Shown: piece by piece, positions 46,375 through 64,000 of the stretch
How positions within the stretch are numbered: position 1 is the first letter of the stretch
How the letters are laid out: every line of letters begins with the position of its first letter
Origin: a virus
Reading direction: 5' to 3' (one strand)
Virus record (IMG/VR): IMGVR_UViG_3300042090_003221
Span: 1-64,000 of that record
DNA: 64,000 nt
Notes under the pieces: model-generated
Told to the model about the DNA's origin: nothing
What the model saw: only the letters and a program-made list of their open reading frames with translations
Databases searched by the model: none
Program-made: the position numbers and the translations under genes

Positions 46375-46420
46375 CATTCCCCGCCCCGCGCGAGCGGGGC
46401 TCATCCGAGGAACGCGGACC

Positions 46421-46597: not shown

Positions 46598-46605
46598 GGT
46601 CGACC

Positions 46606-47066: not shown

Positions 47067-47079
47067 AAGGAGACGCATC

Positions 47080-47280: not shown

Positions 47281-47284
47281 CGCC

Positions 47285-47710: not shown

Positions 47711-47726
47711 CCCAGGAGCCCGAGAG

Positions 47727-48005
47727 ATGCTCACCAAGGCCGAACACAACCGTCTCGTGAAGTGGGAGACGCGCGTCAACGAGATCGTCGAGCAGCTCCG
47801 CGCGCTCGTCGAGGCGAAGCGCGGGGCGATCGAGGCGCGCCGCGAGAAACACGACGCCCGGTCCGAGAAGTGGCTCGAGAGCGAGAAGGGGCTGGAGGCG
47901 ACCGAGAAGCTCGAGGCCGACGAAAGCCGCCTCGCCGAGCTCGACCAATGCGCCGACGACCTCGAGAACGCGATCAGCACCTTGCCGACGGAAGAGGAGG
48001 AATGA
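47727..48005 (+). CDS. Acidic coiled-coil protein
   Basis: SEKWLESEKG motif; AGGAG RBS. Confidence 0.72.
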   Translation: MLTKAEHNRLVKWETRVNEIVEQLRALVEAKRGAIEARREKHDARSEKWLESEKGLEATEKLEADESRLAELDQCADDLENAISTLPTEEEE

Positions 48006-48043
48006 CCGCGACAGCGAGCCGCACGAGGCGGCTCGGTTGTTGT

Positions 48044-48073
48044 TTGACACGATAGGACTTTTTGTCCTATCGT
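48044..48073 (+). promoter_or_regulatory. Promoter/operator P4
   Basis: TTGACA + GATAGGAC-TTTTT-GTCCTATC. Confidence 0.85.
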
Positions 48074-48094
48074 AGGCGCGAAGGGATTTTGCAG

Positions 48095-48757: not shown

Positions 48758-48804
48758 CACAATCCTCGTCGGCTCACGGGGTCGGCATGATCAAGGAAAA
48801 CGCC

Positions 48805-49011
48805 ATGGCAAAGACATTCAAGCTCCACTGGATTCGCGCCGACGGTCAGGGATCGCTCCCGATGGGCGCGTTCCCTTCACGCACCGCGGCGGAAGCCGCC
48901 ATCCCTGCCGCGAAAACCGAGATGCTCGATCAATGCGCCGTCGGCGAAGGGCACGAGGCAGGGATCGAGGCCGGACGGTTCGAGGTCAACGAAGTCGAGG
49001 AGTCCCAATGA
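48805..49011 (+). CDS. Hypothetical protein
   Basis: AAGGA RBS. Confidence 0.6.
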   Translation: MAKTFKLHWIRADGQGSLPMGAFPSRTAAEAAIPAAKTEMLDQCAVGEGHEAGIEAGRFEVNEVEESQ

Positions 49012-49208
49012 CCGACCAAATGCTCGCCGCCCTTGTCGGCGCGATCTCCGGCATCTCGATCGGCGTGTTCTGCGCGGCGACCGGCTATTCCTTCGGATAC
49101 CGCCACGGGATCCTCGCCGGTTGGACGGCGGGTTTCAAAGCGCAGCGCGCGCGGCTCCGGGCGGAGGGCTTCGTCGTGACGGGGCCGATTCCGAAGGCTC
49201 CGGAGTGA
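49008..49208 (+). CDS. Small membrane protein
   Basis: ATGA coupling; N-terminal TM. Confidence 0.6.
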   Translation: MTDQMLAALVGAISGISIGVFCAATGYSFGYRHGILAGWTAGFKAQRARLRAEGFVVTGPIPKAPE

Positions 49209-49266
49209 TCTACCGAGGCGCAATGTCGCGGCCCTGATTTAGGGCGCCGGAGCGGCTCAGCTCGAC

Positions 49267-49294
49267 TTGACATTAGGACAAAAGGTCCTAATGT
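49267..49294 (+). promoter_or_regulatory. Promoter/operator P5
   Basis: TTGACA overlapping ATTAGGAC-AAAAG-GTCCTAAT. Confidence 0.85.
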
Positions 49295-49315
49295 AAGGGC
49301 GAGGAGAGTTTCGCG

Positions 49316-49558
49316 ATGACCAAGCTTCAGGCCTTGCTAGACGAATCCAACGCCGCCGCCAACGGTTCCGTCGCGTATCTTGCCGGGAACCTGATCGAAG
49401 AGGCGGAAGACAACGCCAATCAGACGGCGTTCATCGAAAAGGCCGTTCCTGTCGAGGAACGCGACCGCATGGCCGAAGCGAGCCTCGTTGATCTTCTCGC
49501 CTACTGCAAGGAACCCGAAATCTTGGCGTGGTTCGCCCAGCGTGGGATCGTCGCGTGA
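49316..49558 (+). CDS. Hypothetical acidic protein
   Basis: GAGGAG RBS after P5. Confidence 0.68.
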   Translation: MTKLQALLDESNAAANGSVAYLAGNLIEEAEDNANQTAFIEKAVPVEERDRMAEASLVDLLAYCKEPEILAWFAQRGIVA

Positions 49559-49797
49559 TGCCCGCCACCGCCGAGCAGGTCTTCGCCGTGATCAAGAACA
49601 ACGGCGCCGTGCCGTTCCGCCAGCAGCCGACCGAAAAGGCGCTGCGCTACTACGCCGCCCTGATCGTCAAGAGCGGCGCCCGGTTCGCGGCCGACCAGCA
49701 CGCGCGGGACGCTTGGACCGGAATCACGAATTGGGCGCTGTCCAAGAACATCGCCCGGCTCGAGGCCGAAATCGCCAGAAAGGGAGCCCAGGCATGA
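49558..49797 (+). CDS. Hypothetical protein
   Basis: TGATG coupling. Confidence 0.62.
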   Translation: MPATAEQVFAVIKNNGAVPFRQQPTEKALRYYAALIVKSGARFAADQHARDAWTGITNWALSKNIARLEAEIARKGAQA

Positions 49798-50039
49798 CCC
49801 GCCTCACCGAAACAACCCCGGTCTACCTGATCAACACAAAGGCGAACCGCATCGTTCGCAAGTTCGGCAACTTCGACGCCTTCGCCCGCTTTGAGGGCAT
49901 TGCGCTCGGCTCGAACATGCACCTTTTCACAATGCGCGAAATGTCGACGGCCGGTTTCGTCTACGCCGAATGCGACGACACCGGCGACACGATCGCGACG
50001 ATATCGTCCTACCACGTCAACAAGGCGCTCGCCGCCTAA
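49794..50039 (+). CDS. Hypothetical protein
   Basis: ATGA coupling; ends KALAA. Confidence 0.62.
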   Translation: MTRLTETTPVYLINTKANRIVRKFGNFDAFARFEGIALGSNMHLFTMREMSTAGFVYAECDDTGDTIATISSYHVNKALAA

Positions 50040-50059
50040 CCTCGGAGGTACAAATCTGA

Positions 50060-51433
50060 ATGTCCAACCGCACGATCGCCCTGCCGGTCACCGTCGCTGA
50101 TATCGTCGAGGAATACGACGCCAAGATTGCCGGGCTCGGCGAGTCCATCGCCCGCTTCGAAGCCGCGCAAACCGCGATGAGGTCGGCGACCTGCATCCAA
50201 GGCGTCTATGCCGAGAGCGTGTTCACCGACGCCCGGTTCTACGAGAACGCGATCAAGCTGAACTTGCGCAAGTCGGGCTGGAAGGCGGTCTATCGCCGCC
50301 TGGACGTTGAGCGCCTCGCCAGCGCCAAGGACAAGAAGCTTTTCGAGCAGACGCTCGCGGATCCGCCGGCGCTGACGCTCGACAACGCCAAGGCGACGTT
50401 CGGCAAATACCTGTTGCAGCCGCGCTTTCATGCGCTGCGCGGACTGGCCGAGGTTTTCAGCGGGCTCGATCCTGCCTACAAGTCGCACAGCAAGGTCAAG
50501 ATCGGCGTCGCCGGCTTGCCGAAGCGGGTCATCATCGGGAACGTCGGCGGCTATGGCTCTTGGGGCCGCGACCGGCTGCGCGATATCCTGAACGCGCTCG
50601 CAGCCGCCCAGGGGAAGCCTCTCGTCGAGCACGACGAGCTCACGCGCGTCGACCGCCTGGGCGGGTTCGAGCACCGCGCCGGCGAGGTCGCCTTCGACGG
50701 CTCCCCGATCAAGGCCTATCGCGACGGCAAGGACGTGGAATGGACGCCGCCGGCGCGCGGTGTCACGCTCAAGAAATTCCTCAACGGCAACGGGCACGTC
50801 ATTTTCGATGCCCCGACGCTGCTCGACATCAACCGCGCGCTGGCGGAGTTCTACGGCGAGGTCTTGCCGGACGCCGAAGACGACGCGCCCAAGGCGAAGC
50901 GCGCCAGCACGAACGTCTCGGCTGATCTCCAGTTCTACCCGACCCCGCGCAAGGCGATCGAGACCGTGCTTGACGAGATCGGGCTGGCGCCGACGCGCGA
51001 CCGCTGGAATGACGCCACGCCGGCGCGGGCGGTTCTCGAGCCCTCATGCGGCGACGGCCGGATCCTCGACGTGATCCGCGAGCGCGGCCACCGCGGGCTC
51101 GGCGTCGAGGTCCACCCGGCCCGGGCCGCCGCGGCGAAGACCAAGGGGCACGCCGTCATCGTCGCGAACTTTCTCGAGCGCCCGGCGGAGCCGCTCTTCG
51201 ACTTCGTGGTTCTCAACCCGCCCTTCAGCGGCCGCCACTGGATGAAGCATCTCGCCCACGCGAAACGCTTCGTGAAGCCCGGCGGGACGCTGGCCTGTAT
51301 CCTGCCGGCGAGCGCGGAATATGACCACGGGGTCGCCAAGGAACACGGCGGCGAGTGGCACGACCTTCCGGTCGCCAGCTTCAGCGAGAGCGGCACGAAT
51401 ATCCCGACCGGCTTCTTGGTCTGGCGGGCATGA
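50060..51433 (+). CDS. DUF4942-like domain fused to amino (N6-adenine-type) DNA methyltransferase
   Basis: K.F.NGNGH; QFYPTP, LEPSCGDG, NPPF, F.ESGT. Confidence 0.85.
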   Translation: MSNRTIALPVTVADIVEEYDAKIAGLGESIARFEAAQTAMRSATCIQGVYAESVFTDARFYENAIKLNLRKSGWKAVYRRLDVERLASAKDKKLFEQTLADPPALTLDNAKATFGKYLLQPRFHALRGLAEVFSGLDPAYKSHSKVKIGVAGLPKRVIIGNVGGYGSWGRDRLRDILNALAAAQGKPLVEHDELTRVDRLGGFEHRAGEVAFDGSPIKAYRDGKDVEWTPPARGVTLKKFLNGNGHVIFDAPTLLDINRALAEFYGEVLPDAEDDAPKAKRASTNVSADLQFYPTPRKAIETVLDEIGLAPTRDRWNDATPARAVLEPSCGDGRILDVIRERGHRGLGVEVHPARAAAAKTKGHAVIVANFLERPAEPLFDFVVLNPPFSGRHWMKHLAHAKRFVKPGGTLACILPASAEYDHGVAKEHGGEWHDLPVASFSESGTNIPTGFLVWRA

Positions 51434-51621
51434 TCTGGCCGACCCGCTACGAGGTCGTCCGGGTCCTGCAAGACGGCGACGGCGGCAGGACCTGGACCGT
51501 GCCGCACAGCTCGGCCCGCACCCTGGAAGAGGCCCGCCAGCTCGCCGAGCGCGAGCTCGCCCACTGGATTGTCGTCGAGAGGCGCGTCGTCGCCTCGTCA
51601 AAGAAGCAGGAGAAACCTTGA
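51430..51621 (+). CDS. Hypothetical protein
   Basis: ATGA coupling. Confidence 0.55.
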   Translation: MIWPTRYEVVRVLQDGDGGRTWTVPHSSARTLEEARQLAERELAHWIVVERRVVASSKKQEKP

Positions 51622-52298
51622 TGCGAACGGAACCGACCTTCACATGGATCGAACCCCCGATCGGGCCGCAGCCGCTGCCCGCCTGGGCGAAGGGCGTCGA
51701 GATCGAGTGGATGGGCCACTTCTGCAACCCTCCGCATCTCAAGGTCAAGACGGTCGGCAGCCCTATGCCGGAGGGCGTGTTGTGGCACAAGGACGGCGCC
51801 CGCTACTGGCGCCGGAGCCCCGAGGGCTTCCACGAGGAGAATTCGCACGCCGGTTCGCTGACATGGAGCCAAGTGGATGAGGCTTGGCTGACCTCGCGCG
51901 ATGACGGCTATGGCGGCCGGTGCTGGCGGATCCGGATGGCGCCCGAGGGGCAGTTTGAGCCGCCCTTCGACGTGGTGTTGCTGCGCGGCCCGTGGAACGG
52001 CGACTATCCCGCGGACTGCGACGCGGTCGCCTACTTCGACATGCGGAAGCGCTACGGGCGCGCCGACAGCCGGCCGCGCCCTTGGCACAAGGAAACGTTC
52101 ACCGGCGGTGTCTACATGACGCACGACCTCATCGTGCGCTTGCTCGCGCGGTTTCAGCCGCATCTGCGCATCGCGCGCGTCGAGCATCACGGCCGCGTCA
52201 GGATCGAGCCGGTGAAGCCCGAATGGGACGCTCCGAAGTTCGTCATCATCGAGCGCGAGCGGCAGGAGTATCTGGCGAAGCGCCAAGCCGCGGAGTGA
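51621..52298 (+). CDS. Hypothetical protein (Trp-rich)
   Basis: TGATG coupling; AGGAG RBS; GYGGR...LRGPW. Confidence 0.7.
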   Translation: MRTEPTFTWIEPPIGPQPLPAWAKGVEIEWMGHFCNPPHLKVKTVGSPMPEGVLWHKDGARYWRRSPEGFHEENSHAGSLTWSQVDEAWLTSRDDGYGGRCWRIRMAPEGQFEPPFDVVLLRGPWNGDYPADCDAVAYFDMRKRYGRADSRPRPWHKETFTGGVYMTHDLIVRLLARFQPHLRIARVEHHGRVRIEPVKPEWDAPKFVIIERERQEYLAKRQAAE

Positions 52299-52310
52299 GG
52301 CGGGCGAAAA

Positions 52311-52339
52311 TTGACAAACAGGACAAAAAGTCCTAACAT
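52311..52339 (+). promoter_or_regulatory. Promoter/operator P6
   Basis: TTGACA + AGGAC-AAAAA-GTCCT; -10 TAACAT. Confidence 0.8.
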
Positions 52340-52375
52340 TCCCCGTACGGGGTTTTACGCAAAAGGACGGAACCG

Positions 52376-52822
52376 GTGACCCCAACCCTGATCGAGACCG
52401 AAGCCTTTGTCCGCCGCCTGTTCTTCGGCGTCGTCGACAAGGCCGGGGAGCCTTACGTCGAGCATTGCGTCCGCGTCATGGAGGGTCTGCCCGCGGCCGC
52501 GACGGACGACGAGCGCCACGCCGCGCTCTTGCATGATGTCCTCGAGGACACGGACCTGACCGCGCGCGACCTGCACTTGAGCGGCTACAGCGAGCGGACG
52601 GTCTGGCTTGTCCAGCGCTTGACGAAGTGGAAAGGCGCCGACTATGGCGCCTACGTCGCCGCGATCACAGCCTCGCGCGACGCCGGCCTGATCGCCATCA
52701 AGCGCGCCGACCTAAAGGATAATTCCGACCCGGCGAGGCTCGCGTTGCTGCCGGCGCGCGAGCGCGAGCGGCTCGCGGCGAAATATGCGTCGGCGCGGGA
52801 GATCTTGGAGGCATGGAAGTGA
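52376..52822 (+). CDS. HD-domain hydrolase, small alarmone hydrolase (SpoT/Mesh1-like)
   Basis: DKAGEPY..H..RV, AALLHDVLEDT, LTK, IK.AD..DN. Confidence 0.88.
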   Translation: MTPTLIETEAFVRRLFFGVVDKAGEPYVEHCVRVMEGLPAAATDDERHAALLHDVLEDTDLTARDLHLSGYSERTVWLVQRLTKWKGADYGAYVAAITASRDAGLIAIKRADLKDNSDPARLALLPARERERLAAKYASAREILEAWK

Positions 52823-53121
52823 AAACCTCGCACCCGGTAGACGGGCGGACGCTGAGGCGCACGCGCCCGCTGCCTCATGACCCCGCGCTGCGCAAGAGGG
52901 CGAGAAAGTTCTCGGCTCTCCTCAAGGTGCTCGATATGTCCCAGACGCAAGTCGGGCGGTTCCTCGACTTGGACGGGCGCACGGTGCGCCGCTGGGCGTC
53001 CGGCGACAGGCCGATTCCGATCGCCGTCGAGATCGTCCTGACCTACATGGCGAGGAATGGCCTGACGCCGAAGGAGATCCTCGCCGCCTGCAAGATCAAG
53101 CGACAGCTGGACGTGAGATGA
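52813..53121 (+). CDS. Xre-like HTH regulator
   Basis: MSQTQVGRFLDLDGRTVRRWASGDRPIP. Confidence 0.82.
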   Translation: MEVKTSHPVDGRTLRRTRPLPHDPALRKRARKFSALLKVLDMSQTQVGRFLDLDGRTVRRWASGDRPIPIAVEIVLTYMARNGLTPKEILAACKIKRQLDVR

Positions 53122-53152
53122 GCAGGTTCCTACCGAAGAAAAGGAGACTGAA

Positions 53153-53377
53153 ATGCAATTCAAGATCACGAACTACTGCGACCTCGACGGGGTGCCCGCC
53201 GTAGTCGCGACGCTGGACACGCCGAAGGGACTCGGAACCTACTGCTTCGAATACGTCGAGGGCCGGTGGCGGGAGCCGGAAGACAACGGCGCCGACGTCA
53301 TGAGCAAGTCCCGGGTCGTGACCCAGGACGTCTTCGAGCGCATGTTCCCTGACGTCGGCCTCCCGACGGCGCCGTAA
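53153..53377 (+). CDS. Small hypothetical protein, candidate immunity protein
   Basis: AAGGAG RBS; stop lies 1 nt from the effector stop. Confidence 0.68.
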   Translation: MQFKITNYCDLDGVPAVVATLDTPKGLGTYCFEYVEGRWREPEDNGADVMSKSRVVTQDVFERMFPDVGLPTAP

Positions 53378-53378: not shown

Positions 53379-56300
53379 TCAGGCGACGTTCGGTCGGAAG
53401 ATCGAATGCCAAGCCGGATCGAGCTTGTCCTGAACGCCCTTGTAAAGCGCGCTCATCTTGTTGGACAGCTCGGTCCGGGCGACCGGATCCTTTGACTTCT
53501 GCCATTCCTGATACATATCGTGGCCGCCTTGCTTTTCCTTGGCGTCGAGCATGCCGGGCGCCCACATTTGGACCTCGCCGATCTGGCCGCTCTTGAAGCG
53601 CACCATCACCTTGCGGTCGAAATAGCCCTCTGGCGTCTTCGTCCAGCCCTCGTCGGCGACTTCGAAGTGACGCGCGAGCTGGCGCACCACCTTGTCGCTC
53701 TGGTCGGGCATCGGGGTGTCGAAGCCGCCGCGCACCGCGTCGTTGACCTCCTGAACGGTCTTGCCGCGCTCGAGCTTCTCCATGATGCGATCGGTCTTCT
53801 TGACGCCCGGATCCTTCCACTTGAGCCCGATGTCCTGGGCGGCCGCGGCGCAGACGTCGGCGAGCGCCTTCTGATTTTCGGGCGACATCGCGATGAGCTT
53901 GTTGACGTCCGACGGCGCGGACTTGCGCCAGAGGTTCTTGCGCTCCGACGCCCATTCGGGGCCGTGCGCCTTCAGGCCGGGGCGGTAGGGGCGCGCCTCG
54001 GCGACCGCGGGCGCCGCAGGAGCCGCAGGAGCTGCAGGAGCTGCAGCGGGTTTTGCGGCCGCTGGCGCGGCGGGCTTGGCCGCCTGGGCGGGGGCGGGCT
54101 TTGCCGCGGCCGTTGGCGTCGGCTTCGCGGCGGGGCCGCCAGCGGGCTTCCCTACGGCTTTGGACACGTCAGCCTTCGAGGGCATGGGCTGGTAGCCGGA
54201 ATGGCCGGTGAAAATCATGGGGCGGCCCTTGGCGTCTTTCGGCGGCGTGATGGCCTTTTCGCCGCCCTTGGCCTTCGACGCGGGCTTGGCCTCCGACTTG
54301 CCGCCCTTGGCCGGCTTCGCTTTCGCGCCGCCGCCGCCGGATCCGAACTGCCCGGCGTTGCCCGGCTGGCCGCGCTTGTGCTTGCCTTCGTCCCATTTGC
54401 CGGCATCGAGCGCGAGGGCGCGCAGGCCGCGGCGGAGCGGGTCGGCGTCCATCGCCGGCGCCGGGCAGTCGCGCGCAGGCGCACGCGAGGGCTTGGCGGC
54501 CGCGGCGAGCTTGCGCAGGCCGGCGGCGATAGGGCAGGCGTCCATAGCGGCGTCCTTGGCTTTGGGGCGGGCTGCAGGCTTATTTTCTATCGGCGAGACG
54601 TTGTATTCAGCGCCGCCGCGGGCGAATCCTTGCTTCTCGCGCTCGGTCGGGACGTAGGGCTTGCCGGTGCTCGCGTCGATCGGGCCTCCGCCAGATTTAG
54701 GGGAGGCCGCTCCGAATTTAGCCAGTGTTCCCTCGATCTGGCGCTGCAGGTCCGGGCTCTTGCCGTGAACGTGGCCGAGCGCTTGCTGAAGCGCGTCAAT
54801 GGTCGCCTTGCGGTCGCCCTTGGCGTTAAACTCGCGCGCCGCGTTGATCGCTGTGTGAGCCGCGACCTCGTGCTGCGGCAAAGGCTTGTCGAGATCGCTC
54901 TCGGCGGGCTTGGCGGGGGAGGGGGAGGCCGCAGCGAGCTTTTCCGGATCGCCACGGCTAAGCCGATCAACAATACCGTGCATGCCGGCGTTCTTCAGCG
55001 CCTCAATCGAGCCGTGCTGCTTCAGGGCCTCGTAGTCTTTGTCGGTCGGCGCTGGCAAATTCGGCGCGCCGGTGATTTGCTGGCGGCCGAGCGACCCCTC
55101 CTTGTTCTGCATGCGTTGGATATCGGCCCACTCGTGCCCGAAGATCTTCCCGCCGTCGTGGTGATCTTTCGGCGGCGTAGCCGGCTTACGCGCTGTGGCG
55201 GGAGCCTTGAACTCGGCGGGCTTGGCGGCGGTGCTGCGGTTCGCGCGCGACCACTCTTGTACCGCGTCAACTTGGCTGCGGCCCTTGGCGCGTTCCTGAC
55301 GGACGTAGTCTTGCACGCTCATGGACGTCGGCGAACCGCCCGCGGTAGCCTCGGGCTTGGCCGCAGGTTCCTTGGGGTCCTGCGACCCGACCGCCTGCGT
55401 CTTGCGCAGCTGGTGACCGCGCTCGCCGCCGGCGCCCTCCGGGGCGGCTTCGAAGGTGTGCTCGCCGTTCGACCACTGCGGCAACCGGCTGTGTTCGACC
55501 GGGTTGAAGCCGTTTGCCTTCATGTGCGCGTCGAGCTTGGCGAAATGGTCCTTGTCGGAGAAGGAGGCTTGCGACTTGTGGCTCTCGATCGCGCCGCCTT
55601 CGCCCGCGACCCTGCGGTAGCCGAGGCCGCCGAGCTTCAGGCCGGCGCCCTTGCCCTCAGCCGGCTTGCCCTTGGCCGACTGTGAGAACTTCGCGGCCCA
55701 GGCGACGTCTGGATTTCCGGCCGGTTCTTGAGCCGGGGCGGCGTTGCCGGACGCGCCGGCCGCCTCCTTCGGCGGGTCGACCTTCTGGACCTCCCACTTG
55801 CCGCTGCCCGATCGCTTGTCCGCGTCGCGCTCGGCCGCGGCTTTGTTCACGCTCCAGCCGACGACGTGACCCGCCGGCTGCTCGCCACCTTGGCTGACGA
55901 CGGCGTAAAGCGGCTGAGGCTTCGCGCCGCGCTCGGCTTGGCCTGCCCAGAACTTGCGCATCAGGTCGTTGGGTTTAGCCGGCACGCCAGTGCTGGCGCT
56001 GGCGGGCTTGGCGGCTTTGGCGGCGCCCTTGGCCAGGGCGGGGTCGTCGCTGCCGCGCATCTGCTCGTCGAGCAAGGCCTTCTTGTTCTTCAGCGTGGCG
56101 TAGCTCTCGCCGCCGAGCTTTTCGATCTCGGCGTTGGCCTTCGCGTAGTCGCTGAAGTGCTTGTCGCCCTTCGCGCGCGCGGCCCGCGTCGGGCTTCTGA
56201 TCGCGGCCTCATAGGCGCTGTAGGCCTCATGGGCACGGCGCGTTGCGTTTGCGAGATCCTTATCCACGTTGCGCCCGCCCGCGCGCATGGCCTCTTTCTC

Positions 56301-57005
56301 GGCGTTGCGGGCGGCGACGAACTCCTGTTCCAGGGCCTTCATTTCCGGCCCGTTCATCTTCTCGTCGTGGCGCTTGCCGTTCGCGCGCATCGCCTCTTCG
56401 TGCATCTTCTCGGCGGCGGCGACGTCTTTCGTCCGCGTCATGTGCTCGTGCGCTTTGGCGTAAGCCGCCTTGTCGGCCTCGTCGCGCTCCTTGAAGTGCT
56501 TGGCGGAGAGCTCGGAGATCGCGTTCTTGATCTCGTGCGAGGGGCGGGGCGCCTTCGGCTTCGGCTTGTCGCTCAGATGCTCGGAGCCCGGGCCGGAGAA
56601 CGCGGCGTGCGCGCTCGTGCGCGAGTTCGCGCGGCCCTTGCCGGCGCCGCGCGCCTCGCCGATCGGCTTCCCGTTGAACTTGCCGCCCATGCCGCCCTTG
56701 ATCTCGCCGTTCTCGCCGATCAGGACCGGTGTCCCGGGGCCGTTCGCGTTCGGGTGGACGGTGATCCACTTGTCGGCATCCATCGCGAGCCGCGCGAGGC
56801 CGCGCCGCACCGCTGTATCAAGCGCCATCGTTCCGTCGCCCGCCATCTCTTCCCCCGCGTCATCGTTGTCCGGATAATCGTCCCAGCCGCCGGTCGCGGT
56901 GAGCATCTTGTCGGTGTCGCCGGCGTCCGGGTTGCTGAACTCTTCCTCGGAGATCTCCGGCAGCTCGTAATTCGGGTCTTTCGGGACCGGCATGAGCTTA
57001 CGCAT
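53379..57005 (-). CDS. Large polyvalent protein with C-terminal RelA/SpoT-like nucleotidyltransferase
   Basis: VKK.DR..EK, NDAVRG, GYFD, GEVQMW, GH.MY; N-terminal LAMDA-WITVH module. Confidence 0.82.
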   Translation of the reverse strand: MRKLMPVPKDPNYELPEISEEEFSNPDAGDTDKMLTATGGWDDYPDNDDAGEEMAGDGTMALDTAVRRGLARLAMDADKWITVHPNANGPGTPVLIGENGEIKGGMGGKFNGKPIGEARGAGKGRANSRTSAHAAFSGPGSEHLSDKPKPKAPRPSHEIKNAISELSAKHFKERDEADKAAYAKAHEHMTRTKDVAAAEKMHEEAMRANGKRHDEKMNGPEMKALEQEFVAARNAEKEAMRAGGRNVDKDLANATRRAHEAYSAYEAAIRSPTRAARAKGDKHFSDYAKANAEIEKLGGESYATLKNKKALLDEQMRGSDDPALAKGAAKAAKPASASTGVPAKPNDLMRKFWAGQAERGAKPQPLYAVVSQGGEQPAGHVVGWSVNKAAAERDADKRSGSGKWEVQKVDPPKEAAGASGNAAPAQEPAGNPDVAWAAKFSQSAKGKPAEGKGAGLKLGGLGYRRVAGEGGAIESHKSQASFSDKDHFAKLDAHMKANGFNPVEHSRLPQWSNGEHTFEAAPEGAGGERGHQLRKTQAVGSQDPKEPAAKPEATAGGSPTSMSVQDYVRQERAKGRSQVDAVQEWSRANRSTAAKPAEFKAPATARKPATPPKDHHDGGKIFGHEWADIQRMQNKEGSLGRQQITGAPNLPAPTDKDYEALKQHGSIEALKNAGMHGIVDRLSRGDPEKLAAASPSPAKPAESDLDKPLPQHEVAAHTAINAAREFNAKGDRKATIDALQQALGHVHGKSPDLQRQIEGTLAKFGAASPKSGGGPIDASTGKPYVPTEREKQGFARGGAEYNVSPIENKPAARPKAKDAAMDACPIAAGLRKLAAAAKPSRAPARDCPAPAMDADPLRRGLRALALDAGKWDEGKHKRGQPGNAGQFGSGGGGAKAKPAKGGKSEAKPASKAKGGEKAITPPKDAKGRPMIFTGHSGYQPMPSKADVSKAVGKPAGGPAAKPTPTAAAKPAPAQAAKPAAPAAAKPAAAPAAPAAPAAPAVAEARPYRPGLKAHGPEWASERKNLWRKSAPSDVNKLIAMSPENQKALADVCAAAAQDIGLKWKDPGVKKTDRIMEKLERGKTVQEVNDAVRGGFDTPMPDQSDKVVRQLARHFEVADEGWTKTPEGYFDRKVMVRFKSGQIGEVQMWAPGMLDAKEKQGGHDMYQEWQKSKDPVARTELSNKMSALYKGVQDKLDPAWHSIFRPNVA

Positions 57006-58611
57006 GGTCGCGCCCCTTGTGATCGAACAGCCAGTCGACATGATCTTCGAGCTCTTTCGGCAACGTGCCGCGCTTGTATTCCGGCGACGTTACCAGCGCG
57101 GCGAGCTCCGCGTCGGTTTCTTTGATGTTCGTCGTCGCGTATTCACTGATATTCTCGCGGATCCACTTCTGCCGCGTCGTGTAGTCGATATTCAGCTTTT
57201 GCAGCACGCCCATAAGCCGGTCGGCTGACCGAACGCTCGATCGTAGGCCAAGGGCGTGCGCGAGTTCATGAACAATAGTCGCGCGCGCTTGGTCTTTGCT
57301 CGATGCGCTGACGGACCAATTCGCCTTTCCCGCAGCGATGCGCGCGTCGTTGGCTTCGGCTTGCCCTTGATTGAATTCGCCCCGCTTCGACGGGCTGATC
57401 GAAAAATACCCGACATCACCCTTGCCGGGCTCATTCCTGTACCATGCATGGCCGCAGGACTTGCCCGTCGAGCCCGCCGCCAAGACGACATGAGCCTTCG
57501 ACAGCGCCTTCTTGACGTCGAAGCCGTCGGCTTCCAACTTCGTCAGCGCGTCATTCACTTGCGAGACGATCTCCCGCATGCCCTTCGCCGAGGCGCCGGA
57601 CTGCGTGATATCGATCGGGGTGTGCCCCTTTATGCGGTAGCCCGGGTCGCTTCGCTTGGCCTCAATGATCTTATTGTATTGCTCACGCTTGGCCTTGCCA
57701 TCTTCGCCGTCCTTATCCGGGTGTTTATACCACTCGGAGAACGCCTTCTTGTCGTCGCCGTGCTTAACGCCGTTGATGAAACCGAGGCCGAAGCGCTCTT
57801 TCATGTAGTCGTGAATTTCTTTTGGCGTATCTTTGGCAAACGATTTTCCGCCCGTCGATTCAGCCTTTTTCTTAGTCTTGGGCTGATCCTTTTTGGCTTC
57901 TTTTTCGAGGCGCTTAATTTCGCTTTTGTGTTTATTGTAACCAAAAGCGTGGTTGTTCATTTCATTTCGGCGGGTCTTCGCCCAATCCTTCCACGACAAA
58001 TAAGCCGCATGGTGCGCGGCCATCGCCTTGCGGTGTTCGTCGAGCGTTTTGGCGTTCTCGCTGAGTTTGTTGGCCTCATCCGACAGATGGGCCTTCTTGA
58101 CCCTCTCGAACTCGTACGCTTCCTTGCTGCCGTAGGGGTGCGGGTTCTTGGCGCGCGGATCGAACGGCGGCGCTTCCGGCGGCTTCGGCGCTTCGGCGGG
58201 CTTCGGAAGCGCGAGCCGCTTCTCCGGTCCAGGGCCGAGCCAAATCGCCGGCGAGTGCTGGCTGGTCGAGCCGGACTTCGCCGCGCTCTTGCTGCTCGGA
58301 TTGACGAACTTGCCGTTGAGCTTGCCGCCGGCGCCGCCGATGATCTGCCCTGCGCCGTTGATCAGCGCGGGCTGACCCTTGTTGTCGGGGCCGTTGGGAT
58401 GGATCGTGATCCAGTGCTCGGCGTCCATCGCGAGCCCGCGCCAGCCCGCGGCGTCGTGCGCCGCGCCGCCGAAGCCCGTGAGATCGACGATCTCGGACGT
58501 CCCGCGGAAGACGACGCCGGCGGCGATCTTCGGCGCGGCGTCGGCGGCAAGGCGCGGCTTTCCCAGCGTAGCGGCGAAAGATCGCCAACCGCTTGCGGAT
58601 GCGTCGGTCAT
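56998..58611 (-). CDS. Polyvalent-type protein with C-terminal zincin metallopeptidase
   Basis: IVHELAH...ISEYATTN..E..AE; LAMDA-WITIH module. Confidence 0.82.
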   Translation of the reverse strand: MTDASASGWRSFAATLGKPRLAADAAPKIAAGVVFRGTSEIVDLTGFGGAAHDAAGWRGLAMDAEHWITIHPNGPDNKGQPALINGAGQIIGGAGGKLNGKFVNPSSKSAAKSGSTSQHSPAIWLGPGPEKRLALPKPAEAPKPPEAPPFDPRAKNPHPYGSKEAYEFERVKKAHLSDEANKLSENAKTLDEHRKAMAAHHAAYLSWKDWAKTRRNEMNNHAFGYNKHKSEIKRLEKEAKKDQPKTKKKAESTGGKSFAKDTPKEIHDYMKERFGLGFINGVKHGDDKKAFSEWYKHPDKDGEDGKAKREQYNKIIEAKRSDPGYRIKGHTPIDITQSGASAKGMREIVSQVNDALTKLEADGFDVKKALSKAHVVLAAGSTGKSCGHAWYRNEPGKGDVGYFSISPSKRGEFNQGQAEANDARIAAGKANWSVSASSKDQARATIVHELAHALGLRSSVRSADRLMGVLQKLNIDYTTRQKWIRENISEYATTNIKETDAELAALVTSPEYKRGTLPKELEDHVDWLFDHKGRDHA

Positions 58612-58726
58612 GTGTTGAGCTTCCCCTCGAATGATCAAAACTTCGGCCGATGCGTGGCAGAGGCGAAAAACGCCTTTGACTGCCGAGAGTCTGTGTGTGA
58701 TGCTCCAATCAACCAGGGAGCGTTAT

Positions 58727-58948
58727 GTGATGAAATATACCAAACAAGAATTGGACGAAGCAGCTATCTACGACTTAGCGATCGATGCCCGCACTTCGCG
58801 GGAGCAGGCAGAGAACGGCCCGTATTTTCCAGAAATCGGCATTACCCGCGAAAGCTGCATTGCCTACGCTGAAAAGTGCGAGCGCTCCATTGAGAGATAC
58901 AAAGACGGTGGGGCGCACGCGTTTGTCTTGGGCAAAGAATCGCTTTAG
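58727..58948 (+). CDS. Small hypothetical protein convergent on the zincin gene
   Basis: GGGAG RBS; TTGACT upstream; stop overlaps the zincin stop. Confidence 0.6.
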   Translation: MMKYTKQELDEAAIYDLAIDARTSREQAENGPYFPEIGITRESCIAYAEKCERSIERYKDGGAHAFVLGKESL

Positions 58949-59715
58949 GTCTTCCGGGCCGTCTTAATCAGGTCCGACCACATGGCGTCAGCTAATTTCT
59001 GCGCGTGGTCGGAAAACATGCCGGCAGAGGATTTCTTGGTTTCATACGCGACGAAGCTTTCGGCCATGAACTCGAAAATGTTCTCCGCGCCATACGCTGA
59101 GGTCTGATTGTTAACAATGTTCAACGGACCTTTCCCACTATAACCCAGGTGCCCGTAGACGATTTTCCAGAATTTCTTGAAGCCTATCTTGTCTTCTAGT
59201 TTCGACGCGAGCAGGTGCCCGAATTCATGCGTCATGACGCCGCCGACGGAAGGGTCATTCATCATTCCGTCCCATTCCTTGGCGTATTTTTCTAGGCCTT
59301 CTTTTGTCCATGCTTTAGGACTCAGATTTATGTTGTTTCCGGAGCGATAAGCCAGCGCTCCCTCGCGTTCGTTTTCTTCTACCTTCGGTGACCCCGCCTC
59401 CGGATATTTTTTCGAAAGCTCGGCGACCCTGGAGTGCGCGACGGTCTTATGGTCATTCTTTCCCCGGACCTCGGAAATGTTTTTGCCCGTAAATTTTCCG
59501 CCTAGACCGCCTTTGACTTCGCCGTTAGCGCCGAGCAATACAGGGGATCCGGGGCCTTCTTTGTTGCCGTGAACTGTGATCCACTTCTCGCCAGCATCCA
59601 TTGCCAGGGCGCGCCATCCTGCCCGCGCCGCCCTCACCTTGCCGTCCTGCGCAAGGCGCGGCTTCGCTACAGCGGCGGCAAAGCTTCGCCAACCGCTCGC
59701 AAGTGCGTCGGGCAT
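58945..59715 (-). CDS. Zincin metallopeptidase with shared N-terminal module
   Basis: THEFGH...SAYG..N..EF.AESF; LAMDA-WITVH module. Confidence 0.82.
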   Translation of the reverse strand: MPDALASGWRSFAAAVAKPRLAQDGKVRAARAGWRALAMDAGEKWITVHGNKEGPGSPVLLGANGEVKGGLGGKFTGKNISEVRGKNDHKTVAHSRVAELSKKYPEAGSPKVEENEREGALAYRSGNNINLSPKAWTKEGLEKYAKEWDGMMNDPSVGGVMTHEFGHLLASKLEDKIGFKKFWKIVYGHLGYSGKGPLNIVNNQTSAYGAENIFEFMAESFVAYETKKSSAGMFSDHAQKLADAMWSDLIKTARKT

Positions 59716-59750
59716 GGTGTAGAGGTTCCCTGTTTCAGGAGGCGGGTCTG

Positions 59751-60104
59751 ATGATCGACGCGGCGACGCTTGCCGAGGCGCTCCAAATTCCGGAGCGGTT
59801 CTTGACGGCGACGGATTCGGCGCTTGGCGATTTTGTCGAGGCGCTCAATCTCGCTTCAGAGGCCGTGACTGTGGACACGGGGCGCGGCGCGCGCGCAATA
59901 CTCCGTCCCGACGGGAGCCCTGCCGAAGCCGGCGACTTCCGTCAAGGGGAGCGCATTGAGCTCCGCGAATATCAAGTAGGGAATATGGTCGCGAGCTCGA
60001 CCGCCGGCCCGGTCTTCTGGAACGACGGCAGCTTCTTTATCGACGGCGGCGGCAACCGGAAACAGCGCCGGGCGGCGCGGTCTTCGCGCGCTGGTACGCG
60101 ATGA
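59751..60104 (+). CDS. Hypothetical protein
   Basis: AGGAGG RBS; ends GNRKQRRAARS. Confidence 0.6.
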   Translation: MIDAATLAEALQIPERFLTATDSALGDFVEALNLASEAVTVDTGRGARAILRPDGSPAEAGDFRQGERIELREYQVGNMVASSTAGPVFWNDGSFFIDGGGNRKQRRAARSSRAGTR

Positions 60105-60141
60105 CCGACTCCGCGAGGGGGCCGTTCAGAGGCGCCGCGGC

Positions 60142-60369
60142 TTAGTTGACCGTGGGCGCCGGCGTGGCGGGCGGCGACACCGGCGCCGCGGGATCGCGCG
60201 GGACAGCCGGGACGTTGACCCAGAACTCGCCGTCCTGACCCTGCCATTTCTGTTTCAGGCTGCCGTCGGGGCCGAAGCACAGATAGGCCGTCGGGGTCGG
60301 ATAGGCGCCAACCGCGGCGTTGACCGCGGCCTCAGTCGCCTCGATGCTCTCGCGCATTGCATCAACCAT
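60142..60369 (-). CDS. Hypothetical protein
   Basis: AAGGAG RBS directly after MuF. Confidence 0.62.
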   Translation of the reverse strand: MVDAMRESIEATEAAVNAAVGAYPTPTAYLCFGPDGSLKQKWQGQDGEFWVNVPAVPRDPAAPVSPPATPAPTVN

Positions 60370-60384
60370 AGTCTCTTCTCCTTG

Positions 60385-61158
60385 TTAAAACGGGATAATC
60401 GGCTCTCCGACGCATCGGCAATTGAAGATCTGGCCGGGCAGGGAGTGATGGTCCGGGGGATCGCAGAGCGGCGGGTTGAGGTATTCAAACGCTTTGCCGT
60501 TCAGCCTGCGGTGACCGGGGCGGACATCGGAGTCGCCGATCGTGCGCCAGATGAAGTGGGTGCATCCGATCGACTGCGCCCGGGTCTGCGTCAGCACGCT
60601 CCCGGTGCGGGCAACCTCGGTGCGCGCGATCAGCGTCGCCCTCGAGCGCGAGACCTCGCCGGTGCGCATGATCTCGGCGATGTAGGCCGCGGGTCGCTTC
60701 CCCTCGGTGATGCCGGCGAGCGTGACCTTGCGGACGCGCTCCGCGGCCTCGCGCGGAATCGAGGTGATGAGCGAGGTCTGCTCGTTGAGCAGCGCCTGCA
60801 TGACGCCGCCGACGGGGGTGTCGTCGATCTCGCGCCGCAGGTTGCGGCCGATGCGCGCCGCGGCCTCCTTCCAGCCCTGGAGGTCGCGCGAAGACATCTC
60901 GGTGATCATGCGCGTCGTCACGGAGCGCGCCCAGGGATCAAGGATCTTGGCGTATTGCTCGAGCTGGATCTGGACCGCCTCATAGACCGCGGGGTCGGTG
61001 AGGTCGAACCCCGCGATGAGGTCTTGAACGACCTGCGCCACCTTGCGGAGCTGGCGCGCGTACTTGCCCTCGACAACGCGGGCGCGCTTGTACGCCTTGC
61101 CGGCCGGAGTGTCTCCGGCGCGGTCGAAGGCGTGGTCGAGGCGGACGAGGGCGTTCAC
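60385..61158 (-). CDS. MuF/SPP1 gp7-family head morphogenesis protein (no toxin extension)
   Basis: LI.SIP.EAA.RV; RA.LIARTE; W.T..D..VR..H; PG.I.NCRC; GTGA-coupled start. Confidence 0.92.
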   Translation of the reverse strand: MNALVRLDHAFDRAGDTPAGKAYKRARVVEGKYARQLRKVAQVVQDLIAGFDLTDPAVYEAVQIQLEQYAKILDPWARSVTTRMITEMSSRDLQGWKEAAARIGRNLRREIDDTPVGGVMQALLNEQTSLITSIPREAAERVRKVTLAGITEGKRPAAYIAEIMRTGEVSRSRATLIARTEVARTGSVLTQTRAQSIGCTHFIWRTIGDSDVRPGHRRLNGKAFEYLNPPLCDPPDHHSLPGQIFNCRCVGEPIIPF

Positions 61159-61349
61159 GAGACGGCCCGCATCCGCAGCTCGCGCCGGCGTCTTGCGATG
61201 GCAGCCTTGACCTCCTCGACGCCGAGAACCGACGGAAAGCGAGCGCTCATGCAATGACCCGTCACGTCGTCGAGATACGTTGCTGTCGTGCCGTATTGAT
61301 CGCCGTAGACGTAGGGACGAACGATAATCATTGAAATAAAGTCGTTCAT
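61155..61349 (-). CDS. Hypothetical protein
   Basis: AGGA RBS; coupled to MuF. Confidence 0.55.
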   Translation of the reverse strand: MNDFISMIIVRPYVYGDQYGTTATYLDDVTGHCMSARFPSVLGVEEVKAAIARRRRELRMRAVS

Positions 61350-61427: not shown

Positions 61428-61841
61428 TCAACCGAAAGGATACCCCGCCCCCGCCATGAGCGGAGAGACGTGCATGCCGGTGAACATGGCGAGCGACTGC
61501 CCCGGCCCGAGCGCGAGGACGAATGTCTCGCGCGGTTCCCCCGCTGCGGCGCCGTCCCTGTCCGCGCCGAGGATTAGCAGAGGGGAGGCCTCAAGATCAG
61601 CGCTGCGGGTCGCTGCGCTGACCGTCAACCAGAAGCCCGGCAGATAGGCGTGTACGGTGACGGTCTGGCTGTTGCCGAACTCGTCCGTCGCCGTGGAGGT
61701 TGTGTCGCCCGCATCAGACCAGACCTGCAGGCCAAGATTGACGACGTCGAGTCTCCAGCCCTCAGCGGTGACGTAGGCGGCGAGTGCCGGGTCGGCGATG
61801 GCGTCGGCCGGCGTCAGAGCGCAGAAGAGGTAGTCGATCAT
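61428..61841 (-). CDS. Partner protein of the head-spike-like fibre
   Basis: MIDY...PGFW..V pattern; follows the fibre gene. Confidence 0.65.
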   Translation of the reverse strand: MIDYLFCALTPADAIADPALAAYVTAEGWRLDVVNLGLQVWSDAGDTTSTATDEFGNSQTVTVHAYLPGFWLTVSAATRSADLEASPLLILGADRDGAAAGEPRETFVLALGPGQSLAMFTGMHVSPLMAGAGYPFG

Positions 61842-61850
61842 CTCATCGCC

Positions 61851-63635
61851 TCAATTGTTCAAGAGATTGGGACCGCAAGATAAGGCCACGCGAGAAATTA
61901 GGCCATTGTAGGGGTTGTTGCCCTGTGCGTTGCCGATTGTGATTGGCGAAGCAAATGCGGGGAGGGCCGCTGCAACGGGAGCTGATAAGACACCATTGAA
62001 GCGGGACGTGAGCGTCGTTGTCGTGATGGAAGACGCAAACCTGCCAGAAACTCCCACGGACTGCGCCGCTTGCACTGTAGTGGCAAGGGTTGTCCCATTG
62101 TAGGACCACGCCGAGGGAATGCCGATAGTTCCATAACGTCGGTGCAGATAGTAACCAGAGCCAGCGGGCCAGTATAGCGCGACTTGATCCTGTGCGGTGC
62201 TGCCGGTGATTGGTTCATAGGGCGTCGAAACCGTCAGCATCGAACGCGAGGTAGACGCGCCGCAATTCGGGGCCGGGAGGTTGATTATCGTAAGCGCCCG
62301 TGTCACTGCGCCTGAACTCGTCAGTATCGGACCCGTGGCGAAACCCAGCGCCGAGTTGTCGGTTGGCGTCAGGTTGACGGTCGGGTTCGTCGTGAATAGC
62401 GCGCCTGTTATCCCAATCGAGCCGACGTTCTGCGAGTTGTTGACAGTCCAACTAAGTCCGCTGCCGCCAGTGATGACGGTTCCGGCCGAAATTCCAGTAC
62501 CAGTTAGTGTCTGCCCGATGACGATTGAGCCCAGTGAAACCGACGAGACGGTAAGCGTAGTTCCGGAAATGGCGCCTTGGAAATATGAGTCAAACAGGTA
62601 CGCGCCAGCGGGGGGCAGGGAAGAGTAAGAACCTCCAACCGGGACAGAATTGACGCTTGCGACGCCGCCAGAAATGCTGACGTTGACCTGGGCGGTTGTA
62701 GTGCTCGTACCGAACGCAACGTACATATTTCTCGGCGTTGTGCCCGTTCCGCCAGCGCCGCCACTCGCAATCGCCGCGCTCGCGACGGTGGCGGGCAGGT
62801 TGGGGTTAAGCTCGATCTGCGGTTGCCAGAAACGTACCGTGACATCGACTGTAGCGGTCGATGAGTTTAAATTCACAACGAAAGCTGGATAAACAAAAGC
62901 CGTCGCGGACAGCAAGGGAGTCGCTGAAACGACCATCAATTGTCTATTAGCAAGAGCGGCTACCGACGTCGAAGACGTCTTGTTAGAGACAAACGATCCA
63001 CCACTGTTGACGAAGTCAACATTGTAACCTATTGAATTTATATTTGCGACATTCGGTGATGCGATAATCTGCGCATAAACGGACTGACTCCAAGTCTGTC
63101 CGTAACTCGCAGTGATCTGCGTTGACGCCTCGAATGATAAGCCAGGAAACTGATACGACGCCGTGCCGTAGAAGCGCACGTCGACGTAGTTCATGCCATA
63201 GCTGACGCCGGTCGAGACGATCTGCGTCGATAATCCCGGGGCGTAGAGAGACCAATACTGCGGCGGCGTACCCGGGGTTCCAACAACCGCACCCTGCATT
63301 GTTGAATTGCGAATCCCGTTCGTCCGCGCCTCCCACGCCCACAAGCCACAGCCCAGCGTGATCGCGGGAGTATTGGCGGGGAACGGGCCGTAGAGTTGGG
63401 CGTTGCAGACTTCATATTCCTGCGAGGCGCGCGAGACGTTAAGCTGGCTGGGCGTCAGGCCCCAATAGCGGGAGTGAGCGAAGTCCATGTCCGGGTTCGC
63501 GGCGGGCAAGATCCAGCCGGGCGGATTCCCGATCACCGGGAAGATATTTTTCGAGACCGCGGCCGCGGAGCCGGCGCTGAGCAGCGCGCAAACCGCCGCG
63601 AATAGGCTGAGAGCCCTGATCAAACGCGAGGTCAT
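61851..63635 (-). CDS. Head-spike/fibre-like protein with signal-peptide-like N-terminus
   Basis: DMDF....Y, SRAS, GL..WEARTN.IRNS, PQ.E, I.TS..AVTRA. Confidence 0.75.
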   Translation of the reverse strand: MTSRLIRALSLFAAVCALLSAGSAAAVSKNIFPVIGNPPGWILPAANPDMDFAHSRYWGLTPSQLNVSRASQEYEVCNAQLYGPFPANTPAITLGCGLWAWEARTNGIRNSTMQGAVVGTPGTPPQYWSLYAPGLSTQIVSTGVSYGMNYVDVRFYGTASYQFPGLSFEASTQITASYGQTWSQSVYAQIIASPNVANINSIGYNVDFVNSGGSFVSNKTSSTSVAALANRQLMVVSATPLLSATAFVYPAFVVNLNSSTATVDVTVRFWQPQIELNPNLPATVASAAIASGGAGGTGTTPRNMYVAFGTSTTTAQVNVSISGGVASVNSVPVGGSYSSLPPAGAYLFDSYFQGAISGTTLTVSSVSLGSIVIGQTLTGTGISAGTVITGGSGLSWTVNNSQNVGSIGITGALFTTNPTVNLTPTDNSALGFATGPILTSSGAVTRALTIINLPAPNCGASTSRSMLTVSTPYEPITGSTAQDQVALYWPAGSGYYLHRRYGTIGIPSAWSYNGTTLATTVQAAQSVGVSGRFASSITTTTLTSRFNGVLSAPVAAALPAFASPITIGNAQGNNPYNGLISRVALSCGPNLLNN

Positions 63636-63643
63636 GCTCGATC

Positions 63644-64000
63644 TCAGTTCTGCGGGCCGGATAGCGACAAGGACAGCGTCGCGGAGGCGCCGGGAACGTC
63701 GGCGGCGACAGTTTGCAGGCAGGCGTAGAGGTTCTGCGTCGACGTGCCGTCCGCGTTCTTGTAGTCCCACGACAGATTCGTGAGGGGCGCGTAGGTTTTG
63801 GCGTCGCCGGTTGTGATCTGGGGGGCGGCAAACGAAATCGAGACCGGGCCAGCGCCGATGAGATAGGCGTCGTCGGTTGTGCTCGACGCGAAAGCTGCGT
63901 TGTCGGCGCAGGTCGTGTTGGTTGGGTTTTTGTTCCACACCCGCACGACATAGGTCTGCGTCGAGCCCCAAGAGGTCCAGGCGAGCAGCGACGTGATTAT
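63644..64000 (-). CDS. Putative virion protein, 5' end outside the window
   Basis: Frame open to the window edge; beta-rich, ends NLYACL. Confidence 0.65.
   Translation of the reverse strand: MITSLLAWTSWGSTQTYVVRVWNKNPTNTTCADNAAFASSTTDDAYLIGAGPVSISFAAPQITTGDAKTYAPLTNLSWDYKNADGTSTQNLYACLQTVAADVPGASATLSLSLSGPQN

Follow-up and report, generated by a model that had tools for sequence, protein, structure and literature searches.

The viral record IMGVR_UViG_3300042090_003221 of IMG/VR is a contig of 115.8 kb, and its first 64,000 nucleotides, hereafter the window, are the stretch of DNA analysed here (guanine plus cytosine, GC, content about 65%). Numbering follows window positions. The region of interest, which is read on the minus strand, carries the gene of the head protein MuF and, downstream of it, three genes that we call gpA, gpB, and gpC. 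Their products end in different predicted enzymes and begin alike, with a leader that closes with the residues LAMD, followed by a block of about 45 residues, the module. We consider it probable that these proteins are head-internal cargo, loaded into the capsid and trimmed by the DUF2213 prohead protease of the same phage.

The MuF gene (60385-61254; 289 residues) matches Pfam Phage_Mu_F (E 1.5e-17 over residues 173-282) and phrog_324 (E 1.1e-57). Since this domain ends at residue 282 of 289, the protein has no C-terminal toxin, as an earlier note on this DNA, made from the letters alone, had stated. An open reading frame (ORF) of 75 residues follows in the same minus-strand region (60142-60369), and then gpA (58945-59715; 256 residues), whose translation consists of a leader (residues 1-40; LAMD at 59596-59607), the module (about 59482-59595), and a zincin-like C-terminal part with the motif HEFGH (59215-59229). 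The gpB protein (56998-58611; 537 residues) has a leader with LAAD, AHD, and LAMD (58423-58434), the module (about 58309-58422), a long charged middle, and a zincin-like C-terminal domain with the motif HELAH (57256-57270); its full ORF (56998-58638) would encode 546 residues, and the likely start at 58611 is an ATG aligned with the start of gpA. The third protein, gpC (53379-57005; 1208 residues), has a leader (LAMD at 56778-56789), the module (about 56667-56777), a charged, helical middle of about 700 residues, a proline/alanine-rich linker, and a RelA/SpoT-like C-terminus. Its full ORF is 53379-57041 (1220 residues), with a likely start at 57005.

The shared N-terminus is seen directly in these translations. 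In all three proteins LAMD leads into A-x-x-W-I-T-[VI]-H, and the block runs to a Gly-rich end, GG-x-GGK-[FL]-x-GK. Pairwise BLASTP aligns gpA with gpC at 58% identity across 71 residues (E 8e-21) and gpA with gpB at E 2e-12, the first 24 residues being common to gpA and gpB; it finds no relatedness of the three proteins beyond the N-terminal 100 or so residues. The earlier note had reported LAMD plus a block of about 45 residues in three genes, together with the two HExxH motifs, and translation, BLASTP, and coordinate mapping uphold both the block and the positions of the motifs. The leaders have no signal-peptide features in these translations, and neither Pfam nor PHROGs finds a MuF domain in gpA, gpB, or gpC.

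A second copy of the leader lies inside gpC (54366-54530, minus strand; residues 826-880), where three A-x-D-A sites (AAMDA, PAMDA, RRGLRALALDA) fall within 50 residues. They are followed by KWDEGKHKRGQPGNAGQFG in place of the module, and then by the proline/alanine-rich linker and the C-terminal domain. BLASTP aligns gpC residues 826-914 with gpA residues 5-85 (E 0.002). The gpC protein comprises, in sum, two leader-headed units with one recognized enzyme, and gpA and gpB have one enzyme each. Upstream of the RelA/SpoT-like domain, gpC and a homologue fused to a NUDIX domain (P0152) both carry (K/D)-x-x-HPRGQPxNAGQFG-poly-Gly, which may serve cargo proteins of this kind as a second junction element.

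The module behaves as a domain in its own right. A profile built from the three window copies and searched against 1.84 billion representatives found 851 clusters with E<=1e-3, of which 274 reach E<=1e-10. The module carries WITVHPNG, its consensus contains x3-KG-x-PVLI-x3, and it has a conserved Gly/Lys-rich C-terminal loop. Of 122 copies, 100 have the tryptophan among the first 60 residues (median leader 30 residues), and the proteins that bear the module range from 81 to 4150 residues. Leaders vary across the family in length (5-52 residues) and in sequence, the module being the conserved part. In an AlphaFold2 model of gpA, made from a 50-row alignment, residues 41-80 form three strands with a predicted local distance difference test (pLDDT) score of 89-95, and the two-helix leader scores 54-60. 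The rise from about 60 to about 90 comes directly after LAMD, which places the motif at a flexible junction, outside the folded core. The module belongs to no Pfam-A or NCBIfam family, does not match the Pfam LPD families, and in PHROGs is found only at the N-termini of phrog_25904 and phrog_62. It is too short for word-based or tblastn searches (the former returned only the module itself, and tblastn with the 55-residue module alone returned nothing), so that a profile search is needed. We found no description of it in the literature consulted, LPD domains that are listed solely in the supplementary files of one study (PMC5512222) being left aside.

The domains joined to the module are varied, as the earlier note had expected. 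Among 97 module proteins they include DUF2213 (8 of 97), DUF5710 (8), the ADP-ribosyltransferase ADPrib_exo_Tox (6), Phage_portal_3 (5), and the glutamine deamidase Gln_amidase (5), as well as NUDIX, ddrB-ParB, LPD1/3/5, ART, and ATLF. The protease may precede or follow the module, and some proteins have the order NUDIX-module-protease-scaffold. Phage_Mu_F occurs in none of the 97; docking of the module on MuF was also considered, and no fusion of the two exists in this set.

Two further groups of module proteins differ at the junction. Giant multi-domain relatives repeat the module two to four times; in polyvalent proteins of 1044-4150 residues (P0004, P0005, P0007, P0014, P0027, P0099), the 2-4 internal copies are preceded by ...YA...GQQEF[RQ]W and not by A-x-D, possibly a junction for another head or protease type. 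A second module subfamily forms the N-terminus of DarB-like SNF2 helicases, behind the junction LLKAL-x-x-GERW (L101, L102, L105-L107; L003:11953-12252). In locus L102 the DarB-like gene adjoins those of an N6-methylase-SNF2 giant and of a Zeta-toxin-domain protein, and no window-type head genes lie within 10 kb.

Phage and prophage settings of the module are found in IMG/VR and in species-representative genomes, as had been supposed. Of 354 pattern matches in IMG/VR, 202 encode a relative; 80 of these loci were examined by phmmer with the window's own head proteins, counting neighbours on the same strand within 10 kb. A portal homologue was present at 66 of the 80 loci, MuF at 60, the prohead protease at 58, and the capsid protein at 52; loci without head matches were mostly short or had the same gene-size pattern. 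Together with the fusions to DUF2213 and Phage_portal_3 counted above, these numbers bear out the expected co-occurrence with DUF2213/DUF2184 heads. The module takes up one of four positions: the beginning of the protease-scaffold ORF, which directly follows MuF; a place within the portal ORF; a gene some 2.6 kb past the capsid; or, as in the window, a gene of its own that stands between those of MuF and protease. Two consecutive module genes occur in some loci (L024, L054). Species-representative genomes contain 23 module loci from many phyla, about half of them in such prophage head clusters. Among cultured phages, Vibrio phage 1.112.O has a module gene that adjoins portal, MuF, and DUF2184 genes, and Bordetella phage PHB04 encodes, between portal and capsid, a DarB-like helicase with an N-terminal module.

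The head encoded by the window and the adjoining contig, which we ascribe to a myovirus prophage, is of the Phage_portal_3/MuF/DUF2213 protease/DUF2184 capsid lineage, the type of PB1, E217, and XM1. The protease, portal, MuF, and capsid families of this lineage are all matched, and Pfam and PHROGs agree with the head family names that had been proposed. The large terminase gene (contig 66271-67902) and the portal gene (contig 64272-66278, L001:3273-5279; minus strand; Phage_portal_3, E 6.1e-77) lie just past the window end; the portal is extended at its C-terminus by about 170 residues rich in Pro, Gly, and Ala. The remaining head genes, also on the minus strand, encode the prohead protease (41784-42371; Pfam DUF2213, E 2.2e-51; phrog_2229, E 3.4e-87), the scaffold (40497-41630; equivalent to the C-terminal part of phrog_2229), a decoration protein of the XM1-gp53/E217-gp24 type (39955-40461; XM1_gp53, E 8.2e-24), and a major capsid protein of the DUF2184/Major_capside type (38891-39928; phrog_264, E 8e-58; Pfam Major_capside at E 1.6e-5 only, under the cut-off). 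Contractile tail and endolysin genes come after them. Protease and scaffold are separate genes here (41631-42404 region, gap about 150 nucleotides); in most relatives, and in phrog_2229, they form a single polypeptide.

Comparison of these head proteins with their relatives reveals A-x-D at fixed positions. In the capsid protein, A-x-D-[AS] occupies one column in 29 of 35 distinct homologues, just before the conserved N-arm. The window has G-A-L-D/A there (39818-39829; the slash marks the predicted cut) and other phages have IAQDA, LAMDA, or VAMDS, and we predict from the alignment that GALD/A is the capsid propeptide junction. At the equivalent place the capsid protein of Pbunavirus SN reads S61-A62-M63-D64-S65-N66, in a stretch that is at least 88% identical, with no length change, in 295 Pbunavirus records. 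In the cryo-electron microscopy (cryo-EM) capsid models of two other members of this genus, E217 and Pa193, residue 66 is the first one modelled, and the authors suspected cleavage (PMC10329688, PMC11456595); this start is one residue past the predicted new N-terminus, S65. For Vibrio phage XM1, loss of the first 30 capsid residues has been reported (PMC10457771).

Similar columns occur in two other head proteins. The C-termini of the scaffolds (50 aligned), which are divergent and acidic, have three conserved A-x-D-[AS] columns, and of the window sites LAVD/A, PAMD/A, and IAQD/A the latter two fall in conserved columns. In the portal, (L/V)AMD is conserved in 24 of 53 relatives, about 70 residues into a variable N-terminus (E-M-A-L-D-D-A in the window), suggesting trimming of the portals of this lineage as well. 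Across families, the motif exceeds its frequency in shuffled sequences about 4-fold in the capsid (42 vs 10.4) and in the protease-scaffold (162 vs 44), and shows no excess in the sheath (3 vs 5) or the decoration protein (2 vs 4.4). In front of the module, loci with this head have the canonical A(-6)-x-D(-4) in 23 of their 34 distinct copies, most of the rest having a shifted A-x-D. The canonical form is present in 0 of 14 copies from loci without this head, which have GERW or similar and belong to DarB-like helicases. This co-variation with head type speaks for A-x-D as a part of the protease system rather than of the module fold. A literature search found no published cleavage specificity for DUF2213 proteases.

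In view of these data, leader, probable cut site, and module of 45 residues look like a widespread, undescribed route for the loading and trimming of interchangeable effectors in this type of head. Each effector would consist of a poorly ordered helical leader of about 25-75 residues that ends with a hydrophobic residue (h), A-x-D, and then A; a well-folded three-stranded beta module of about 45 residues; and a swappable enzyme, here a zincin-like domain in gpA and in gpB and a Tas1/Apk-like alarmone synthetase in gpC. The effectors would be built into the prohead, after which the DUF2213 protease would cut behind the Asp of h-A-x-D, the same site as in the capsid propeptide, the portal N-terminus, and the scaffold. 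The leader would thereby be lost, and the toxin unit of gpC would also be freed at its internal AMD/AMD/ALD cluster; in the fused forms, the cut would free module and enzyme from portal or protease. The trimmed enzymes would remain in the DNA-filled head and probably reach the next host with the DNA. Cleavage at A-x-D, presence in virions, and the part that acts as the address, leader or module, we infer; ejection into the host would be expected solely by analogy with the internal proteins and Alt of T4, DarB of P1, and the ejection proteins of giant phages (PMC9024508, PMC5694885).

Several results weigh against this route. Plain A-x-D counts in the head and cargo proteins of the window show no excess over composition-matched shuffles, the scaffold being the sole marginal case (10 vs 5.9 in shuffles, p=0.05), and the motif statistics across families compare related sequences, which inflates their z-scores. 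TerL, MuF, and portal have an excess of about 2-fold over shuffles, and the large terminase TerL has a conserved A-x-D-[AS] column (17 of 19), so that conservation or enrichment alone does not prove a cleavage site. The module occurs without A-x-D in DarB-like helicases and giant polyvalent proteins; its role is thus not bound to the DUF2213 protease, and D(-4) might serve the module as a structural cap. The effector block of the window is lower in GC content and is cut off from the remaining head genes by opposite-strand genes over 11 kb, and the zincin calls for gpA and gpB rest on HExxH (HEFGH, HELAH) and weak matches only. Finally, a tblastn search with one module-bearing protein found the module in only 5 of 50,697 cultured phage records (4 phages). 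The idea in the earlier note that A-x-D is common to head and cargo proteins therefore fails by counts in the window and stands as positional conservation in relatives of capsid, scaffold, and portal, and the sites that it named in the protease (IALD), in MuF (HAFD), and within the capsid have no comparative support.

The TerL column and the strength of D(-4), which in the main subfamily is about as conserved as the core residues, would fit a different explanation, namely that A-x-D structurally caps the N-terminus of module and capsid N-arm and is left uncut, and that the proteins are minor ones of the head or of its assembly that undergo no processing. TerL is a folded enzyme, and the N-termini missing from the cryo-EM maps may just be disordered (PMC10329688). 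However, the motif is missing before modules outside this head type. It also lies in a low-confidence segment of the gpA model and turns up again in the variable N-terminus of the portal and in scaffold regions that are unrelated, acidic, and poorly conserved, and two independent capsid models begin one residue beyond the predicted new N-terminus (PMC10329688, PMC11456595). We regard the structural explanation as distinctly improbable, and retain trimming by the protease.

The second leader of gpC, which has no module, favours the leader as the address, and the conservation of the module and its presence with other heads favour the module. A tentative proposal, to which we give less credence than to capsid loading itself, combines the two: PB1/XM1-type heads would use a transferable two-part address, a leader ending with h-A-x-D/A plus the 45-residue beta module, that loads, trims, and delivers any enzyme, the junction co-evolving with the protease (A-x-D here; GERW or QQEF[RQ]W with other heads). 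We found no similarity between leader and scaffold, although the earlier note had called the leader scaffold-like. The note's placing of the module at the new N-terminus of the cargo agrees with the predicted layout of gpA, gpB, and gpC. This layout is not universal: the NUDIX-module-protease-scaffold architecture shows that a cargo can have its module elsewhere than N-terminally, internal copies follow GQQEF[RQ]W or GERW, and the toxin unit of gpC has no module.

Alternatively, the module and not the leader might be the packaging or anchoring element, docking on a conserved partner in the head interior (portal, MuF, scaffold core, or DNA), with A-x-D serving to trim a dispensable extension or to split fused anchors. 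The contrast between a conserved module and leaders that vary in length and sequence would be expected in this case, as would modules that accompany other head types without A-x-D or are fused directly behind portals and proteases; the Gly/Lys-rich loop of the module is, moreover, conserved as strongly as its strands. Nevertheless, the toxin unit of gpC has its leader and no module, which suggests that the leader is a functional unit by itself, and in the NUDIX-module-protease-scaffold proteins the cargo is N-terminal to the module. We therefore see anchoring by the module alone as unlikely, and less so than the structural cap.

The C-terminus of gpC (53379-53990, minus strand) is a predicted RelA/SpoT-family domain, of the type of the Tas1/Apk-like small alarmone synthetases. 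The AlphaFold2 model (pLDDT 71.5; predicted template modelling score 0.71) supports a RelA/SpoT synthetase fold: in Foldseek, all 23 matches in the PDB at E<=1e-3 are synthetases of this family. The best are an exported small alarmone synthetase (8vx3, E 1.2e-6) and the type VI effector Tas1 (6ox6, E 9.9e-6), and SAS1, RelP, Rel, and CapRel are also matched, with template modelling (TM) scores of just about 0.4. The fold search alone succeeded, as Pfam, NCBIfam, and PDB sequence or profile searches gave nothing, and a homologue search, swamped by the proline/alanine-rich linker, gave two matches only. The RelA/SpoT-like assignment of the earlier note is in this way supported by the structural model, and not by Pfam or by PDB sequence search.

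In the zincin-like protein gpB, Pfam Reprolysin_3 is matched at E 0.017, under the cut-off. Structure atlas rows include peptidase clusters with weak TM scores (0.34-0.51). The gpB-type zincin is a recurrent family (34 unnamed clusters), and its domain is also fused behind portal and module (P0024, L034, L042, L056). The gpA protein has no Pfam or NCBIfam matches. Its zincin part is poorly modelled by AlphaFold2, and Foldseek was uninformative, the model being poor outside the module and the beta unit of 40 residues too small.

Convergent with gpC lies a plus-strand gene (52376-52822) for a predicted HD-domain small alarmone hydrolase of 148 residues, a candidate immunity enzyme. Having such a SpoT-like neighbour is an indirect hint that the gpC domain may act as a pyrophosphokinase. 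The protein matches the hydrolase region of NCBIfam spoT_relA (E 7.4e-11), phrog_990 (E 9.7e-34), and Pfam HD_4 (E 6.7e-5). The phage toxin Apk2 is paired with the hydrolase Aph1 (PMC10083569), and by analogy the HD protein is likely an alarmone hydrolase that serves as immunity; it would shield the producing cell from gpC.

Such a pair is also what would be expected if the effectors were toxin-immunity cassettes of the lysogen, prophage 'morons' for interbacterial competition or abortive infection that are not loaded into capsids, the shared N-terminus being a secretion or regulation signal. The lower GC content across gpA and gpB (0.60-0.62) and the small opposite-strand ORFs, which like the HD hydrolase resemble immunity genes, fit this explanation, and there is still debate on what MuF-linked toxins do (PMC5576092, PMC10083569). 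However, the module forms part of portal and of protease polypeptides, dozens of phages have it within their order of head genes, its leader lacks signal-peptide features, and gpB-type zincins are fused to portals. We thus find cassettes of this kind highly improbable, more so than any of the explanations above, and keep to capsid-loaded cargo.

The plus-strand ORFs in question lie in the gap between MuF and gpA (59751-60104; 117 residues) and in that between gpA and gpB (58631-58948; 105 residues). They have no match in Pfam, NCBIfam, or PHROGs and no homologues in related loci, and they may be immunity genes, regulatory genes, or not genes. On a larger scale, the head cluster is broken at two places. 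Between portal and MuF, a stretch of lower GC content (0.59) that spans about 3 kb (window 61428-64000 and contig 63644-64234) looks like an insertion; it holds a Ser/Thr/Gly-rich ORF of 585-706 residues and an ORF of 196 residues, both with signal-peptide-like N-termini. The second break is the plus-strand block of 11 kb (42491-53377) that parts gpC from the protease, in which a DUF4942-methyltransferase gene (50060-51433) and many small ORFs accompany the HD hydrolase. Megablast of 24 kb of the window against cultured phages gave no match.

The proposed route resembles several known ones. In T4, internal proteins and Alt bear a capsid targeting sequence that the prohead protease gp21 cuts at (L/I)-x-E (PMC9024508, PMC12991175). 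As in T4, an N-terminal leader is found on unrelated enzymes, the motif, with an acidic residue before the presumed cut, is common to capsid and scaffold substrates, and the cargo would be head-borne and meant for the next host. In contrast to T4, the protease is DUF2213 and not gp21, and the motif is A-x-D and not L/I-x-E. DarB of phage P1 is loaded by means of a capsid targeting signal, 30 residues long, at its N-terminus, and the Dar proteins share no consensus signal (PMC9024508). Both systems have large enzymes of the anti-defence type with an N-terminal signal that loads them or, here, would load them, and the DarB-like methylase/helicase proteins of PHB04 and L102 bear the module N-terminally. 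On the other hand, the head of P1 is of a different type and the present module is strongly conserved; the P1 record was not among the cultured-phage tblastn matches, the query being one module-bearing protein and not the N-terminus of P1 DarB. Neither T4 nor P1 has a counterpart of the conserved folded module that follows the predicted cut site.

The MuF polymorphic toxins share with the present effectors a place beside portal and MuF, a repertoire of ADP-ribosyltransferase and RelA/SpoT-type domains, and an HD hydrolase neighbour (PMC5576092, PMC10083569). The effectors described here, however, are free-standing or fused to portal or protease, and without a fusion to MuF they are not MuF toxins in the defined sense. 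Polyvalent proteins likewise have zincin MPTase, ART, RelA/SpoT, ddrB-ParB, LPD, and SNF2 helicase domains, and the idea of processing into units applies to both, but their own zincin domains were proposed as the processor (PMC5512222), whereas the junction motif found here matches that of the predicted prohead-protease substrates. Finally, in the giant phages phiKZ and SPN3US ejection proteins are cut at A-x-E by the prohead protease, many of these head-internal proteins being processed (PMC5694885, PMC10052503). That motif has almost the shape of A-x-D, with a small, an arbitrary, and an acidic residue in turn. The residue before the cut is Glu in those phages and would be Asp here, protease and capsid are of unrelated lineages, the genomes considered here are much smaller, and the module is absent from phiKZ and SPN3US as far as tested.

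The capsid type discussed here is found in 542 cultured phage records, including therapeutic Pseudomonas Pbunaviruses, and the analysis would supply a sequence rule for spotting capsid-delivered effectors in this large, medically relevant head lineage. It makes two testable claims, one on protease specificity and one on a cargo tag. The first proposes a concrete cleavage specificity for the uncharacterized protease family DUF2213; according to the second, leader plus module is a candidate tag with which reporter proteins could be loaded into such heads in laboratory strains. If the two-part address is true, phage heads would possess in the module a general cargo domain that had not been named before, and A-x-D would be the first defined specificity of a DUF2213 protease. 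Whether MuF-associated toxins travel in virions and are injected is a question that has been raised (PMC10083569); the fusions to portal and protease, as indirect support, would place the module-linked set of toxins inside the head and so bear on it. More generally, free-standing effectors, MuF toxins, and polyvalent proteins would be joined under one loading logic.

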